From the NCBI GenBank assembly GCA_041907025.1, contig JAYRIB010000062.1, positions 1-62,357 of the forward strand: DNA of 62,357 nt. Reading direction: 5' to 3'. A model generated the notes under the pieces. That model was given only the letters and a program-made list of their open reading frames with translations. It made no database searches and was not told where the DNA came from. Every line of letters starts with the position of its first letter. Position 1 is the stretch's first letter. This document shows positions 1 through 13,221 of this stretch, in pieces. A program made the translations under genes and the position numbers. Origin of the DNA: Candidatus Saccharimonadia bacterium. GTDB taxonomy: Bacteria > Patescibacteriota > Saccharimonadia > CAILAD01 > JADZBC01.

Positions 1-228
1 CTCCTTCTGGTAGAACGGCTCAGCGGTGACCGGGCGCCTGACCTCGGAGAGGTCGGGCACATCGCACTGGGCGCGAAGCACGCTGATGGTTCCTCCGAAG
101 GTGTCGTGACGGTTCTCGTCACGCTTGCGGCAGTAGCCGTGTCGCTTCTTGCGGAGCACGGTCTTCTTCCGGCGGGCGGAACGCTTGTCTCGCTCCATGT
201 CCTTGTTGCGCTTTCGATCTGCCTTCAA
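1..228 (-). CDS. Hypothetical basic protein, GC3-rich, truncated by the window edge
   Basis: Minus-strand ORF absent from the ORF track because it runs off the left edge. It reads (L)KADRKRNKD-MERDKRSARRKKTVLRKKRHGYCRKRDENRHDTFGGTISVLRAQCDVPDLSEVRRPVTAEPFYQKE... An in-frame TTG at 228 lies 4 nt after AAGGAGG; an alternative ATG is at 198. Nearly every codon ends in G/C. Function unknown. Confidence 0.45.
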   Translation of the reverse strand, partial: MKADRKRNKDMERDKRSARRKKTVLRKKRHGYCRKRDENRHDTFGGTISVLRAQCDVPDLSEVRRPVTAEPFYQKE

Positions 229-277
229 ATCCCCTCCTTGGAGATATTGTTATTGCACGAATAAAACAAGGACTGTC

Positions 278-306
278 ATCATACATCATAAGTGCTATTA
301 TGTCAA
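278..306 (-). promoter_or_regulatory. Sigma70-like promoter for the edge-truncated GC-rich ORF
   Basis: Minus strand reads CATTGACA-17 nt-TATGAT. It lies in a short AT-rich spacer between the GC-rich ORF and the stop of the 312..1205 gene. The -35 region (CATTGACATAATAGCACTT) closely resembles the one at 15117 (CATTGACTTACTAGCACTT). Confidence 0.4.
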
Positions 307-311
307 TGGCT

Positions 312-1205
312 TTAGAGAGCTTTTTTAGTGCGCGTAAACCGCCGAGCAATCTTAGCGCTCTGGTCAAAGGCATGGAGGTTTAATATATCTGGCCGGACGC
401 GCACGAACGCTTCCTTGGTGTGCATCTTCGGCTGGCCTGCCGTGTGCTTGAGATGCTTACGGTAACCTTTGTTATCCAACTGATCCAGCCATGTTAAGCC
501 GCCGCTATAAACCCGGATCTGCGACTTTGGCCACACGTAATTCGGAAACACCTCCTGCACATAATCGCTACTTTTGAGCAGGTCGTACCATATACTCGCG
601 CCATAAACAGGCCGGGCCAACATGAGCCAATAACCTAAGTGCGGGCCGTTTACCGCCATAATGTCTCTCTGCCAGTTAGCACCCGCAGTGGTCATAAACA
701 TTCCTAGACTAAAACGGCCAGCTTTGCGCTTCTCGATTTCTAGCTGCCCAAGAAGTTTTAGGGTATACATCAAGATTCCCTTGGTAATGTAAATTCGGTT
801 TGGCTTAGTGACAATAAGCAAATCAATGTCGCTATCGGCACGGACATTGCCAATAGCCACACTATTAACTACTACAACCGCCTTCACAAAGGGTAGTAAG
901 CCAAAAGACTTTGCCCAGCGTCGGGCCTTTGTTAGTAGCTTTGTTTGACGCCTGTTACTGATTTCACGGCCTAGGTAAGCAGGTCCCACTAGGCGGTAAT
1001 ACCCGTCGCCATCTTGTTCTATGCGCTTAGCCTCCACCAGCTCTCGAAGTGCCTCTTTTACCGCTAGATGACCAGCCTTAATGTTAATAAGCACGTTAGC
1101 CTCATTCTCGCTAAGTGGTATAGAGAAGATAGCAAAATAAGCCATCAGCTCCAAGATTGCCCCCTCCACCCTACGCTCAGTCTTCTCTAGCACGCCCTCC
1201 GCCAT
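312..1205 (-). CDS. Nucleotidyltransferase-domain protein with an N-terminal winged-helix-like region
   Basis: 297-aa ORF. VVVVNSVAIGNVRADSDIDLLIVT fits the minimal nucleotidyltransferase-fold G[SN]...DxD motif. Function beyond the fold is unknown. Confidence 0.7.
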   Translation of the reverse strand: MAEGVLEKTERRVEGAILELMAYFAIFSIPLSENEANVLINIKAGHLAVKEALRELVEAKRIEQDGDGYYRLVGPAYLGREISNRRQTKLLTKARRWAKSFGLLPFVKAVVVVNSVAIGNVRADSDIDLLIVTKPNRIYITKGILMYTLKLLGQLEIEKRKAGRFSLGMFMTTAGANWQRDIMAVNGPHLGYWLMLARPVYGASIWYDLLKSSDYVQEVFPNYVWPKSQIRVYSGGLTWLDQLDNKGYRKHLKHTAGQPKMHTKEAFVRVRPDILNLHAFDQSAKIARRFTRTKKAL

Positions 1206-1209
1206 ATGA

Positions 1210-2553
1210 TTATGACTTTAGGATCTTCATAAGTTCATCTACCTTTTCTTGCGTTAGCTTGGCGTCTTTGGACTCCACACTCAAACGAAGCAGGGGCTCT
1301 GTATTACTAGGTCGCACGTTGAACCACCAGTCCGAATACGTAACGCTTAACCCATCGAGCTCATCCTGTTCGCCATCGCTATATGCCATACGTAACTCGC
1401 GTAGCTTAGCTTCGGTGTCGCCAACCGGCATGTTAATTTCTCCCGAATTGCTATACATCCTTAGCTTATCGACCATTTCAGACAAGCTTTGGCCAGACCT
1501 GGAGAGAATATCCAGCGCCAGCATTGCAGCAATTAATCCAGAGTCTGCAAACCAATTATCTTTAAAGTAATAGTGGGCAGATTGCTCCACTCCGAGTATT
1601 GCTCCGTGCTGGTGCATAAGCGCCTTGATGTTGCTATGCCCTACCTTGCTCCTAACACCTACTCCGCCCAAGCGCTCAATGGTATCGCGGACAATGTGAC
1701 TCGCGCGAACGTCATACACAATGGTGGCACCGGGGTGCAGAGCCAAGAAGTTCTCGATAAGTAGCGCGCCCAGTATACCCGGGTTTACCGGCCTGGCTTG
1801 ATCGTCTATCAATACTGCCCGATCGCCGTCACCGTCAAATGCAATGCCGACCTCCAATGCTTTACTACGAACCATCTCGATAATGTCTTTGAGTCCTTCT
1901 GGTAAAGTCGGGTTTGCAGGGTGGTTCGGGAACGTGCCGTCGAGCTCGGCAAACATCTTCTCGATCTTAAAAGGTGTCGCGGCCTCGAGCTCATCGAGCA
2001 CAATCCCAGCCATGCCATTACCAGCGTCAATGGCGAGGTGGAACGGCTGCAGTCGCGCCACGTCTACAAAGCTAAGGACGTAGGCAATCCAACGATCACG
2101 TACATCGAGCTGCTCACGGAGTCCAGGTTTCGTAGCCTCTTTGAACATCTCGCTCTTTACGAGGTTCTTAATTTGAGCAAGACCAGTCGTCTCGCCAATA
2201 GGCACTACGCCTTTACCACACAGCTTAATGCCGTTGTATTTACCAGGGTTATGGCTGGCTGTCACCATGGCCCCGCCGGCCGCCTTTAAGCTACCGACGG
2301 CAAAGTAAACCATATCGGTACTTACTAGGTCAATATCTACTACGTCTCTCCCCTGCTTTAGGAGGCCATCTACGAGGGCGGTGTGAAGCTCCTCGGAATC
2401 AGCCCGCATGTCTCGGCCAACAACTACCTTGCCAGAATTAGGTAATGTGTCGGCTAGCGCTCGGCCAACGGCATGAGCAACGTCTGGGCTGAGCTGTTCT
2501 GGGCTGAGGCCACGAATGTCGTAGGCCTTAAAGATTTCCTCCACAAACTTCAT
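1210..2553 (-). CDS. Phosphomannomutase/phosphoglucomutase (alpha-D-phosphohexomutase family)
   Basis: 447 aa. Active-site loop MVTASHNPGKYNGIKL (phosphoserine motif TASHNP), metal loop FDGDGDR, and the N-terminal FKAYDIRG typical of PMM/PGM. Confidence 0.9.
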   Translation of the reverse strand: MKFVEEIFKAYDIRGLSPEQLSPDVAHAVGRALADTLPNSGKVVVGRDMRADSEELHTALVDGLLKQGRDVVDIDLVSTDMVYFAVGSLKAAGGAMVTASHNPGKYNGIKLCGKGVVPIGETTGLAQIKNLVKSEMFKEATKPGLREQLDVRDRWIAYVLSFVDVARLQPFHLAIDAGNGMAGIVLDELEAATPFKIEKMFAELDGTFPNHPANPTLPEGLKDIIEMVRSKALEVGIAFDGDGDRAVLIDDQARPVNPGILGALLIENFLALHPGATIVYDVRASHIVRDTIERLGGVGVRSKVGHSNIKALMHQHGAILGVEQSAHYYFKDNWFADSGLIAAMLALDILSRSGQSLSEMVDKLRMYSNSGEINMPVGDTEAKLRELRMAYSDGEQDELDGLSVTYSDWWFNVRPSNTEPLLRLSVESKDAKLTQEKVDELMKILKS

Positions 2554-2603
2554 GAGGTCATTATAATCTGATTAGCAGCAGTCCACAAATCAGCATGGAA
2601 TAC

Positions 2604-12192: not shown

Positions 12193-12274
12193 TGAATGAA
12201 GAAAAGGATTCGGGCCCGAGGAGGGTCGGTGTAGAGAGCCTGCCTTCTGGGCGAACGGAAGTGGCGTAGCCACC

Positions 12275-12291
12275 ATCCCTCCCTCTCCGCC
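12275..12291 (+). repeat. 17-nt direct duplicate of the tRNA-Ser(GCU) 3' end (att-like footprint)
   Basis: ATCCCTCCCTCTCCGCC is identical to 12134-12150. It is preceded by the hairpin GTGGC-GTA-GCCAC plus C, and followed by a second terminator (GCTGG-TCA-CCAGC TTTTT, 12307-12324). Confidence 0.8.
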
Positions 12292-12362
12292 CTGCAAAGC
12301 GCCGGTGCTGGTCACCAGCTTTTTGTATTGTTGACTTATATGCTTGCTTGTAGTATAAACAT

Positions 12363-12869
12363 ATGGTCATAAGATCGCACCCCGAAAACTGGAGTACTGA
12401 TTTGCCTACTGCAATCGTTGGTATTGGCCTCCCGGCCAGCGGCAAGACCACCACGCTCAAGCAGCTCGCGACTGAAAAGGGCGCTGCGTACATCTGCGCA
12501 GACGACATCCGTGAGCAGCTCAGCGGCAGCGCCAAAGATCACTCGCGCAACGACGATGCTTGGAGCATTATCTATCGCAAGATTGAGGCTGCCCTGTTGG
12601 AGGGCCATGATGTGGTCGTTGATGCCACGAACGCCAAAGTGAAGGATCGCCGACAGATGGCGCGCTTCTGCAGCAACCTTGGTGCGAAGACGATCGGCTA
12701 CTGGTTCGTGACGCCCTTGCGCGTTTGCATGAGGCGCAACCAGGCGCGAAAGCGCGTCGTGCCAGATCGGGCTATGCGTCGAATGGATTACTGCCTGCGT
12801 AGCGCTCCGCCCGACTTGTCCGACGGCTTCAGCAAGATCGTCAAGATCTTCCCTCCCCAGGGATCGTAG
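12363..12869 (+). CDS. P-loop kinase (AAA_33 / polynucleotide-kinase-like ATP-binding protein)
   Basis: Walker A GLPASGKTT. VVVDATN and the RRNQAR region are typical of small AAA_33/zeta-like kinases. Followed by the hairpin CCGCCCCCT...AGGGGGCGG. Confidence 0.7.
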   Translation: MVIRSHPENWSTDLPTAIVGIGLPASGKTTTLKQLATEKGAAYICADDIREQLSGSAKDHSRNDDAWSIIYRKIEAALLEGHDVVVDATNAKVKDRRQMARFCSNLGAKTIGYWFVTPLRVCMRRNQARKRVVPDRAMRRMDYCLRSAPPDLSDGFSKIVKIFPPQGS

Positions 12870-12970
12870 TCCACCTTTCCGCCCCCTCCAGAGATCGTCT
12901 GAAGGGGGCGGTTTCACGTTATAGGTGGAAAATAATGCTAGATTTGGTAAACTATAGCCTAGCTACTTAA

Positions 12971-13060
12971 GGAGAGGTGTCCGAGTGGTTGAAGGAAATA
13001 GTCTTGAAAACTATCGTGCCGGAAACGGTACCGTGGGTTCGAATCCCACCCTCTCCGCCA
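12971..13060 (+). tRNA. tRNA-Ser (anticodon UGA)
   Basis: GGAGAGG acceptor, anticodon stem-loop ATAGT-CTTGAAA-ACTAT, long variable arm, T-arm GTGGGTTCGAATCCCAC, encoded CCA. Confidence 0.9.
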
Positions 13061-13203
13061 ATAGAAAGAGTCCGAGCACGTCTCGGGCTTTTTCTATGGT
13101 AGACTAGGTAAGAACCCAGGTTCGGTGGAGTAACGCGCGCAGCGTCAATGCCAAGCTCGCTTGCGCTTTGACCAAGCACGTTACGAAGGTCGCGGCAGCG
13201 ACC

Positions 13204-13221
13204 ATCCCACCCTCTCCGCCA
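13204..13221 (+). repeat. 18-nt direct duplicate of the tRNA-Ser(UGA) 3' end (att-like footprint)
   Basis: ATCCCACCCTCTCCGCCA is identical to 13043-13060. It is preceded by the hairpin GGTCGC-GGCA-GCGACC. The junction ACC|ATCCC is the same as at 12272-12279. Confidence 0.8.

Follow-up and report, generated by a model that had tools for sequence, protein, structure and literature searches.

We analyzed a 62,357-nt contig from Candidatus Saccharimonadia bacterium (JAYRIB010000062.1, assembly GCA_041907025.1; the window in what follows), in which several short GC-rich blocks are found between ordinary genes. Our data indicate, with a probability of about 0.6, that these blocks consist of lineage-specific accessory transcription units, which in one clade of activated-sludge Saccharibacteria reside in fixed slots flanked by housekeeping genes. 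The slot after gene g312 would be occupied by a basic protein, A, or, in other strains, by a unit of ~800 nt that is free of open reading frames (ORFs). The slot between PGM and Fem1 would contain the mRNA of a strongly expressed 32-43-aa peptide (RNA1) and, convergent to it, a structured non-coding RNA of 0.5-0.9 kb (RNA2). The slot between Fem2 and tsaD would carry a membrane-peptide operon with a middle gene that is exchanged between lineages, and the slot at the tRNA-Ser pair would hold a kinase and a GNAT acetyltransferase, accompanied in this strain by two putative scars of site-specific integration of ~125-140 bp. A predicted promoter-like site of the sigma-70 type was recognized for every unit, and a terminator-like hairpin for most of them. 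Direct transcript evidence, at the level of contigs, was obtained only for RNA1 and for g8033, a gene outside the blocks; none was seen for RNA2, the Fem2-tsaD cassette, A or the kinase.

Saccharibacteria and other bacteria of the Candidate Phyla Radiation (CPR) live as obligate episymbionts with tiny genomes, and to our knowledge little has been established about what governs their host specificity and the competition between their strains. An original prediction, made from the window sequence, had interpreted the blocks as repeated, recent acquisitions of foreign high-GC genes wired to native promoters, with an actinobacterial host or its phages as donors. As detailed below, the blocks proved to be autonomous, compositionally distinct units and indels relative to a related genome, whereas recent import of high-GC DNA was largely unsupported.

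Blocks occupy syntenic slots in seven lineages

The window originates from an activated-sludge Saccharibacterium, and its tsaD was assigned to Saccharibacteria. The closest species-representative genome by tsaD was L001 (70% aa identity; runner-up, 56%). Many metagenomes from activated sludge and wastewater contained near-identical DNA. When g312, Fem1 and PGM were looked up by exact match, only short contigs of the same sample were returned, while scans of JGI metagenomes gave no match with Fem1 and only distant relatives (<=60%) with tsaD. Related contigs were found via the c2 protein cluster, graded Fem1 homologues, a kinase homologue and an A homologue, and the resulting comparison covered seven lineages that at their most diverged are ~70-80% identical at the nucleotide level.

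All related contigs shared the order g312, PGM, block, Fem1, Fem2, cassette, tsaD, valS and TPR. Beyond TPR, L089 and L095-L097 continued with tRNA-Ser(GCT), a gene, tRNA-Ser(TGA), a gene, g13656 and tRNA-Arg. In each of the seven lineages, a block, its homologue or an alternative occupant was located in the same syntenic slot, and this synteny spanned L084/L087 (88-98% nt identity), L091/L095, L089, L092 and L098/L099 (~73% nt identity). Relative to L001, the blocks are indels: in this genome PGM and Fem1 are separated by 13 bp, Fem2 and tsaD by 55 bp, and the tRNA-Ser pair by 24 bp, without kinase or GNAT genes. An attempt to follow indel polymorphism in Logan contigs was abandoned, as these were too fragmented and the apparent tRNA "joints" came from unrelated organisms that share tRNA 3' ends.

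Homology with relatives ended at sharp breakpoints (278, 2589/3878 and 6577), and identity to L084/L087 switched at gene or slot borders. It amounted to 99.7% for g312, 88-95% for Fem1, 99-100% for the cassette, 97-99% across g7632-g8033 and 98-99% for g8033, next to 80% for tsaD (6576-7628) and 84% for valS (8557-10953) at the nucleotide level; the latter two values equal the between-lineage divergence among five lineages. Both types of cassette junction were recovered in independent assemblies, one in L082 and L084-L088 and the other in L103, which matched window positions 5942-6841 at 99.8% and thereby confirmed the window-type cassette-tsaD junction. Thus, the mosaic is not an assembly artifact. 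Either the accessory units may have spread between lineages or core genes may have been replaced, and the slot borders would be recombination breakpoints in both cases.

Composition and expression signals of the blocks

The GC content of the window is 0.515, and the G+C content at third codon positions (GC3) of its 36 ordinary genes, used as background, is 0.556 ± 0.071 (maximum, 0.67). GC percentiles are given as ranks among windows of the same length. The blocks had been described as compositionally distinct, with codons ending almost exclusively in G or C. The first part of this description stood for A, c1 and c3 (the outer genes of the cassette), more weakly for c2 (its middle gene) and the kinase, and did not stand for GNAT; the second stood only for A, c1, c3 and the 38-codon ORF of RNA1 (0.82), and not for c2, the kinase or GNAT. 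In A, 63 of 76 codons end in G or C (GC3, 0.83; p = 3e-5 versus local genes), a level attained by no 76-codon window of the background genes, and its GC content of 0.627 is at the 96th percentile. GC3 values in the cassette were 0.81 for c1, 0.69 for c2 and 0.86 for c3 (p = 5e-4 for c3), with a cassette GC content of 0.63 (99th percentile); a GC3 of 0.81 was attained by 0.17% of 42-codon background windows. The kinase was mildly raised (GC3, 0.73 over the ORF at 12363-12869; GC at the 92nd percentile), and GNAT showed no enrichment (GC3, 0.61; GC at the 17th-40th percentile). The observation is therefore real but was overstated, and we regard it as partly confirmed.

The block between PGM and Fem1 (block B, 2590-3876) had been called ORF-free. 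Indeed, it contains no ORF beyond chance (longest stop-free run, 93 codons versus a shuffle mean of 104), but it holds two convergent units, one of which includes the 38-codon ORF. Its GC content is 0.57 overall, 0.63 (98th-99th percentile) at 2640-3125, and at the 79th-86th percentile at 3160-3840; since most of the block is non-coding, GC3 has no meaning there. For the gene at 23542, the count of 20 G/C-ending codons among the first 20 was reproduced (GC3, 0.94), compared with 8-9 of 20 in the two ordinary genes examined.

The blocks are preceded, as had been stated, by AT-rich spacers (GC, 0.26-0.49) with sigma-70-like promoters, and GC-rich hairpins were confirmed at the ends of most of them. 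The shared extended -35 box CATTGACWTAMTAGCACTT was also recovered, with 2 copies versus 0.02 expected; the promoter of the 15198 gene is the one that shares this box with block A.

High GC3 is not expression-linked codon bias, since in close relatives the GC3 of GroES and GroEL is only 0.45-0.51. Raised GC3 was moreover kept in orthologues over ~25% nt divergence (A, 0.83-0.88; c1/c3, 0.67-0.86; peptide ORF, 0.78-0.82), and other accessory genes in the same slots were GC3-rich as well, namely, a Band7 gene (0.87) and the gene of a 572-579-aa protein (0.79-0.82).

RNA1 and its predicted micro-peptide in the PGM-Fem1 slot

The largest of the blocks, block B, had been taken for a foreign coding insert. 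Instead, it appears to consist of a micro-peptide gene and a candidate long structured RNA. In every lineage, the PGM-Fem1 block measures 1.1-1.8 kb, is mostly non-coding and contains homologues of RNA1 and RNA2, and some lineages have an additional gene of 60 or 88 aa in this slot. Seven alleles were compared (window, L089, L084, L087, L091, L092 and L098).

RNA1 (2647-2985, plus strand) is an mRNA-like transcript of ~339 nt, its strand being assigned from promoter and ORF. It is preceded by a promoter-like site at 2604-2632 (plus strand; TTGACA-17-CAAAAT, 10/12 matches), whose TTGAC box is retained in L084, L087, L091 and L098, and followed by terminator-like hairpins at 3058-3088 and 3096-3115 (plus strand). 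In alignments with L084/L087 read by eye, paired changes were observed at four pairs of the first hairpin and at one pair of the second. Contigs of RNA1 were found in sludge metatranscriptomes at 2647-2985 (runs X25 and X26), 2647-2982 (X27) and 2666-2985 (X28), with a depth of up to 34.7. The flanking genes gave no transcript contig in those runs, and besides short tRNA-like pieces the only other specific transcript contigs within positions 1-20,000 were at 8049-8332. With a promoter, downstream hairpins and a discrete transcript contig, RNA1 has the features of a sigma-70 unit.

The predicted micro-peptide ORF (2810-2926, plus strand) comprises 38 codons (MCTMLKGETMTVFDATAPDARGAPEAAGFLSCTGQAIV) and starts with an ATG placed 6 nt behind GGAGG. 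An ORF of 32-43 codons is present at the equivalent position in 7/7 alleles; an R-G-A-P motif is found in six of them, and RGRP in L089. Indels within the micro-ORF in the window/L084/L087 alignment are of 9 nt. Compared with the nearest allele, that of L089, RNA1 is 91% identical in the 5' untranslated region, 100% in codons 1-8, 48% in the remaining ORF and 79-87% in the 3' part. Thus, the transcript is conserved but the tail of the peptide is hypervariable. The C-terminal part of the peptide is rich in Thr, Ser, Ala, Gly and Cys. The peptide matched no precursor family in PADLOC, PHROGs or NCBIfam, and no partner genes of a ribosomally synthesized and post-translationally modified peptide (RiPP) or bacteriocin, whether for maturation, export or immunity, were recognized beside RNA1, where the neighbors are PGM, FemAB-family genes and RNA2.

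Other identities were considered for RNA1. From its size and abundance, 2647-2985 was suspected to be RNase P RNA, transfer-messenger RNA (tmRNA), SRP RNA or 6S RNA, but Rfam (E up to 10, 551 nt) and ARAGORN were negative, and a by-eye likeness to a P4 helix and T-arm was borne out by neither. The locus also lacks the traits of a type I toxin-antitoxin system: the RNA1 peptide is not hydrophobic, the convergent terminators of RNA1 and RNA2 do not overlap (3115 versus 3160), and neither c1 nor c3 had a recognizable antisense unit.

RNA2, a candidate structured RNA

RNA2 (3160-3840, minus strand) is an ORF-free candidate structured non-coding RNA of ~680 nt. Its promoter-like site (3845-3873, minus strand; TTGACG-17-TATATT, 10/12 matches) lies immediately past the Fem1 stop codon, and the sequence TTGACGC...GGAGTATATTGCAAGCAGTTC of this promoter is conserved in five lineages. 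A predicted intrinsic terminator at 3171-3202 (minus strand), with a 14-bp GC-rich stem and a U-run, is conserved in the five-sequence alignment, and L092 and L098 have an intrinsic terminator of different sequence at the same position. Homologues of 512-905 nt in L084, L087, L089, L091, L092 and L098 kept the promoter and the 5' sequence AGUUCYUUGAG. Outside promoter, 5' end, terminator and a conserved core that is present in 5/7 alleles, the sequence turns over, and helix 3 is swapped in L084 for an unrelated perfect hairpin.

The core (3293-3379, minus strand) spans 87 nt and two helical domains. Its covariance model, R1, scored 83-110 bits and did so only in the window, L084, L087, L089 and L091; no match was obtained in L001, L092, L098 and about 20 other Saccharibacteria loci. 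Folding z scores were -8 to -13 for the minus strand, compared with -3.7/-3.8 for the plus strand and -0.2 to -2.3 for coding controls, and the L084 copy was likewise strand-asymmetric (-5.8 versus -3.6). A hidden ORF under reassigned stop codons was rejected, as none was found beyond chance. Rfam 15 at the gathering threshold returned only tRNAs in the window and seven loci, and ARAGORN found no tmRNA in its scan. The best E-value-mode Rfam matches of block B, sX14 with 24.7 bits (gathering threshold, 80) and SAM-IV with 17.9 bits (38), were below gathering.

A further unit of this kind was noticed in L001 on the other side of PGM (5825-6500, minus strand; ~680 nt). It is ORF-free, bounded by a promoter and a terminator, and folds with a z score of -10.8 versus -3.7 on the plus strand; it matched neither Rfam nor the RNA2 core. 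In the window, two ORF-poor stretches at 21267-21920 and 29130-30123 (both plus strand) had z scores of -5.2 and -5.5 versus dinucleotide shuffles, folded less distinctly on the other strand, and may be further structured RNAs.

The membrane-peptide cassette in the Fem2-tsaD slot

The cassette consists of three overlapping ORFs (6028-6528, plus strand): c1 (6028-6123), which encodes a predicted 31-aa single-pass membrane peptide, c2 (6120-6416), a 98-aa helical orphan, and c3 (6403-6528), a 41-aa predicted membrane peptide. A promoter-like site at 5956-5984 (plus strand; TTGACT-17-TAATCT), the -35 box of which is conserved in L091, precedes the ORFs, and a GC-rich terminator hairpin is predicted at 6512-6538 (plus strand).

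Every lineage has a membrane-peptide/soluble-protein/membrane-peptide operon in this slot, in which the c1 and c3 families are conserved. Homologues of c1 with the C-terminal motif N[FL]RR.K..[RK] were found in L090, L091 and L092, the L089 intergenic sequence encodes an L090-type tail, and c3 homologues were found in L091 and L092-L094. The middle gene, by contrast, is swapped, being one of three unrelated proteins of 98 aa, 93 aa (L091 and L095) or 109-111 aa (L089, L090 and L092). No homologue of c2 outside its own 90% cluster was detected among 5.8 billion proteins. Its AlphaFold model shows four helices (pLDDT, 78.6), and assignment of a function from this structure failed, with no fold match at an E value below 3. 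The small block proteins had no match in Pfam, PHROGs, PADLOC or NCBIfam.

Alternative occupants of the slot after g312

Block A (1-228, minus strand) encodes the N-terminal 76 codons of a very basic orphan protein of ~120 aa that is cut at the window edge; full-length homologues have 117-139 aa. Only five homologues were found in 1.8 billion representatives, and the one whose genomic position was looked up (P0249, 74% aa identity) is syntenic and from a Saccharibacterium. It adjoins the g312 homologue in L098 and L099 (~73% nt identity), where its GC3 is 0.88. A is absent from L084, L087 and L091 and had no match in Pfam, PHROG, PADLOC or NCBIfam.

The promoter-like site of A (278-306, minus strand; TTGACA-17-TATGAT, 11/12 matches) carries the extended -35 box CATTGACATAATAGCACTT. 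Homology to L084 and L087 begins exactly at 278, immediately past the -10 box. The promoter at 306-278 is thus part of the conserved flank, while the content downstream of it differs. Past 278, L084 and L087 have an ORF-free unit of ~800 nt and a GC3-rich 579-aa gene instead of A. The unit in L084 (2385-3195, minus strand; ~700-800 nt) is GC-rich, bounded by a promoter and a terminator, and folds with a z score of -5.2 versus -1.7 on the opposite strand; it matched neither Rfam nor the RNA2 core model. GC3-rich occupants recorded in relatives are a Band_7 protein gene in the same slot of L089 (15075-16124; GC3, 0.87) and genes of 572-579-aa membrane proteins, without Pfam match in the gene tables, at L084 294-2033, L091 12696-14414 and L099 5278-7014 (GC3, 0.79-0.82).

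Kinase, GNAT and repeat-bounded inserts at the tRNA-Ser pair

The presence of inserts behind both tRNA-Ser genes was confirmed, and in each case a 17-18-nt stretch of the tRNA 3' end recurs at the far border of the insert. Behind tRNA-Ser(GCT), the insert (12152-12291, plus strand; 140 bp) ends with a 17-nt copy (12275-12291) of 12135-12151 and contains a hairpin at 12162-12183. The insert behind tRNA-Ser(TGA) and its terminator (13099-13221, plus strand; ~123 bp) ends with an 18-nt copy (13204-13221) of 13043-13060. Only 123-143 bp lie between the tRNA repeats, with no ORF, integrase or cargo, and no integrase adjoins the putative scars. Both inserts are missing in L095, where tRNA-Ser(GCT) is directly followed by the terminator and the kinase promoter, which suggests that they are scars specific to the window lineage.

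Outside the repeats, a promoter-like site (12331-12359, plus strand; TTGACT-17-TATAAA) precedes the gene of an AAA_33-family P-loop kinase (12402-12869, plus strand; 155 aa, TTG start; Pfam AAA_33, E = 1.2e-23), which is followed by a hairpin at 12879-12911. The GNAT acetyltransferase is encoded at 13231-13587 (plus strand; 118 aa). In L095-L097, the two tRNA-Ser genes are separated by a syntenic kinase orthologue (77% aa identity), and the second intervening gene encodes a 118-aa GNAT, which in L095 corresponds to that of the window by length and place. The intervening genes in L089 are those of an unrelated GNAT and a DUF6886 protein. A third serine tRNA gene with its terminator, tRNA-Ser(CGA) at 28340-28468, is 78-85% similar to tRNA-Ser(TGA) with its terminator and to the 12275-12329 stretch; given this similarity, the three tRNA-Ser genes share one 3'-end core, which could be an attachment site.

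No actinobacterial or phage donor was found

Searches of protein, phage and plasmid collections did not reveal the actinobacterial host or phage donors that had been proposed. The nearest homologues of the kinase were the syntenic Saccharibacteria protein (77%), another Saccharibacteria protein (72%) and one at ~50%; the only named matches were to Acidobacteria (33-36%), and phage polynucleotide kinases, including actinophage ones, were only 27-34% identical to it. Block B, A and c2 had no blastn/tblastn match in the phage collection, block B had none in the plasmid collection, and an exact-match search of IMG/VR with two conserved patterns of the RNA2 core was negative. The composition is indeed atypical for the recipient genome (GC3, 0.81-0.86), except for GNAT. 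Nevertheless, recent and repeated foreign acquisition is largely unsupported: with syntenic orthologues or alternative occupants across the seven lineages and no donor-like match, the evidence within the clade largely speaks against it.

Alternative explanations

The reading of the blocks as accessory units of a Saccharibacteria clade was weighed against several others. Import from actinobacterial hosts or phages, each insert landing behind a native promoter, would account for GC3 outliers that expression does not explain and for the lack of the blocks in L001; duplicated tRNA 3' ends are a typical mark of insertion by an integrase, the promoter at 306-278 lies in a conserved flank with strain-variable content downstream, and many actinophages encode AAA_33-type polynucleotide kinases. 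We nonetheless consider it improbable. Orthologues are syntenic across lineages ~73% apart at the nucleotide level, phages, plasmids, four family libraries and 5.8 billion proteins yielded no donor-like match, the kinase is closest to Saccharibacteria (77% and 72%, versus 27-34% for phages), no integrase accompanies the scars, and block B, instead of being a foreign coding insert, is a locus of RNA and a predicted micro-peptide. Only slightly less doubtful is an origin of the GC3 excess in situ, with the slots as recombination hot spots subject to GC-biased gene conversion or repair, which would require no foreign source. Lassalle et al. reportedly described in 2015 an association of recombination with GC3 in bacteria. 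The slots do show the strongest signs of recent recombination (99-100% identity beside 80% flanks, with sharp breakpoints), and high GC3 persists in orthologues of the clade without decay toward the genome mean; yet g7632 and g8033 are equally mosaic (97-99%) and have low GC3 values of 0.46-0.48. Block B might also be decayed coding DNA, left by an inserted gene cluster that became pseudogenized, being ORF-free, GC-rich, outside any Rfam family and so fast in its divergence between strains that it is alignable in a few islands only. The promoters, transcript 5' ends, terminators and 87-nt core conserved across lineages make this very unlikely, as do the strand-asymmetric folding of both RNA2 alleles tested (window and L084) and of the positional analogue in L001, the terminator and helix changes that preserve pairing, the abundant discrete transcript and the micro-ORF in 7/7 alleles. 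Finally, chimeric metagenome assembly or chance composition is hardly credible: although the window is a metagenome-assembled contig and Logan contigs break at slot borders (e.g., 6591 and 12153), the same junctions came from different assemblers and independent samples (L082-L088 and L100-L103), and chance would have to produce composition p values of 3e-5 (A) and 5e-4 (c3).

Several points count against our preferred reading of clade-specific accessory units. The slots are empty in L001, so the blocks may have been gained by the ancestor of the clade, perhaps through horizontal transfer from a GC-rich donor that has not been sampled. The mosaic could equally well be due to replacement of tsaD and valS, rather than to spread of the cassette. 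The raised GC3 of the small ORFs could be caused either by a GC-richer mobile source or by GC-biased repair. Covariation in RNA2 is thin, with 4/49 pairs changing on both sides and an energy term of -0.4 in five sequences from ~3 lineages, and no RNA2 transcript contig was found in the sludge metatranscriptome runs. Translation of the micro-peptide is predicted from the ORF, and A, the peptide and c1-c3 have no family match, only the kinase and GNAT belonging to known families.

A model for slot renewal, and its relation to known systems

If the blocks are accessory units of this clade, slot content would be renewed by allelic replacement, that is, by homologous recombination in the conserved flanks. 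The tail of the micro-peptide would be under diversifying selection and RNA2 would act as a structured RNA. GC enrichment of the RNA parts would reflect folded structure, and that of the small ORFs would be a stable property of the accessory gene pool, due to a GC-richer mobile source or to recombination-linked GC-biased repair. Judging from the hypervariability and the membrane-peptide content, the units are likely to mediate interactions of individual strains with their host, with phage or with competitors. More tentatively, the PGM-Fem1 slot might encode an undescribed gene pair, made of a very highly expressed micro-protein with a conserved head, RGAP and a hypervariable tail and of a convergent, fast-turnover structured RNA of no known family, which together with the cassette could serve an episymbiotic Saccharibacterium as strain-diversifying modules for such interactions; positional analogues are the ORF-free units at L084 2385-3195 and, in a genus-level relative, L001 5825-6500.

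Flexible genomic islets or hypervariable regions have been reported in streamlined genomes, for example, in those of SAR11, Prochlorococcus and Methylophilaceae (see PMC10872708). Like these, the slots have fixed positions between core genes, strain-specific content replaced via conserved flanks, atypical composition and mostly orphan genes. Unlike these, they measure 0.3-1.7 kb, are single transcription units and contain micro-proteins and long non-coding RNAs instead of glycosyltransferase or transporter clusters; moreover, they are GC-richer than the core, whereas flexible islands are usually AT-richer. The tRNA-Ser inserts resemble tRNA-targeted integrative elements in that each is delimited by 17-18-nt direct repeats derived from the 3' end of tRNA-Ser, with the tRNA left intact, but at ~123-140 bp, with neither integrase nor cargo, they are scar- or remnant-like, and the kinase and GNAT genes are not enclosed by the repeats and have syntenic counterparts in relatives.

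Long intergenic regions of high GC content led to the large structured RNAs OLE, GOLLD, ROOL, HEARO and raiA (PMC8632094, PMC8723152). Similarly, RNA2 measures 0.5-0.9 kb, is ORF-free and GC-richer than the sequence around it, has its own predicted promoter and terminator and folds stably on one strand; it differs from those RNAs by the lack of an Rfam match, by its faster turnover and by its occurrence in one Saccharibacteria clade so far, and it is known from sequence alone. With RiPP, bacteriocin and pheromone precursors, the predicted peptide shares its length of 32-43 aa, a conserved N-terminal part with a motif, a hypervariable C-terminal part and a very abundant transcript, but no modification, transporter or immunity gene is recognizable nearby as for RiPP and bacteriocin precursors, and the ORF is a prediction.

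At this locus, much of the variation between strains appears to reside in tiny, autonomous, GC-enriched units that separate essential genes and that include one of the most abundant transcripts of the organism and a candidate large structured RNA. If functional, these units would be concrete candidates, open to testing, for factors of host interaction or competition, and might represent a new class of large non-coding RNA. They also call for caution in composition-based detection of horizontal transfer, as the GC3 outliers are here old, syntenic and lineage-restricted rather than recently imported.

Other observations in the window

Two orphan genes lie between tsaD and valS (7632-8503, minus strand). 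The first, g7632, encodes an acidic, disordered-looking protein of 116 aa, and its GC3, like that of g8033, is within 0.46-0.48. The second, g8033, encodes 156 aa and has a perfect TG-extended promoter-like sequence (TTGACA-17-TATAAT, 8517-8489) and the transcript contigs at 8049-8332. Both genes are present in L084-L088, L089 has only g8033 (57% aa identity), and L091 and L095 have neither.

In the region at 14.5-24.2 kb, GC3-rich genes without Pfam match were observed at 15198-15602 (0.84), 20511-21167 (0.83) and 23542-24117 (0.94), together with a truncated PurH-like MGS/AICARFT fragment at 16490-17137 (GC3, 0.76). Behind tRNA-Arg, in what had been termed an island, three copies of a ~64-nt repeat (15608-15671, 16381-16445 and 21843-21906) are 83-92% identical and could be element boundaries or a miniature repeat. 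A second repeat, of ~130 nt, occurs three times in a low-GC, ORF-poor region (31593-31725, 31960-32092 and 32423-32542), with 70-85% identity and a spacing of ~370-460 nt.

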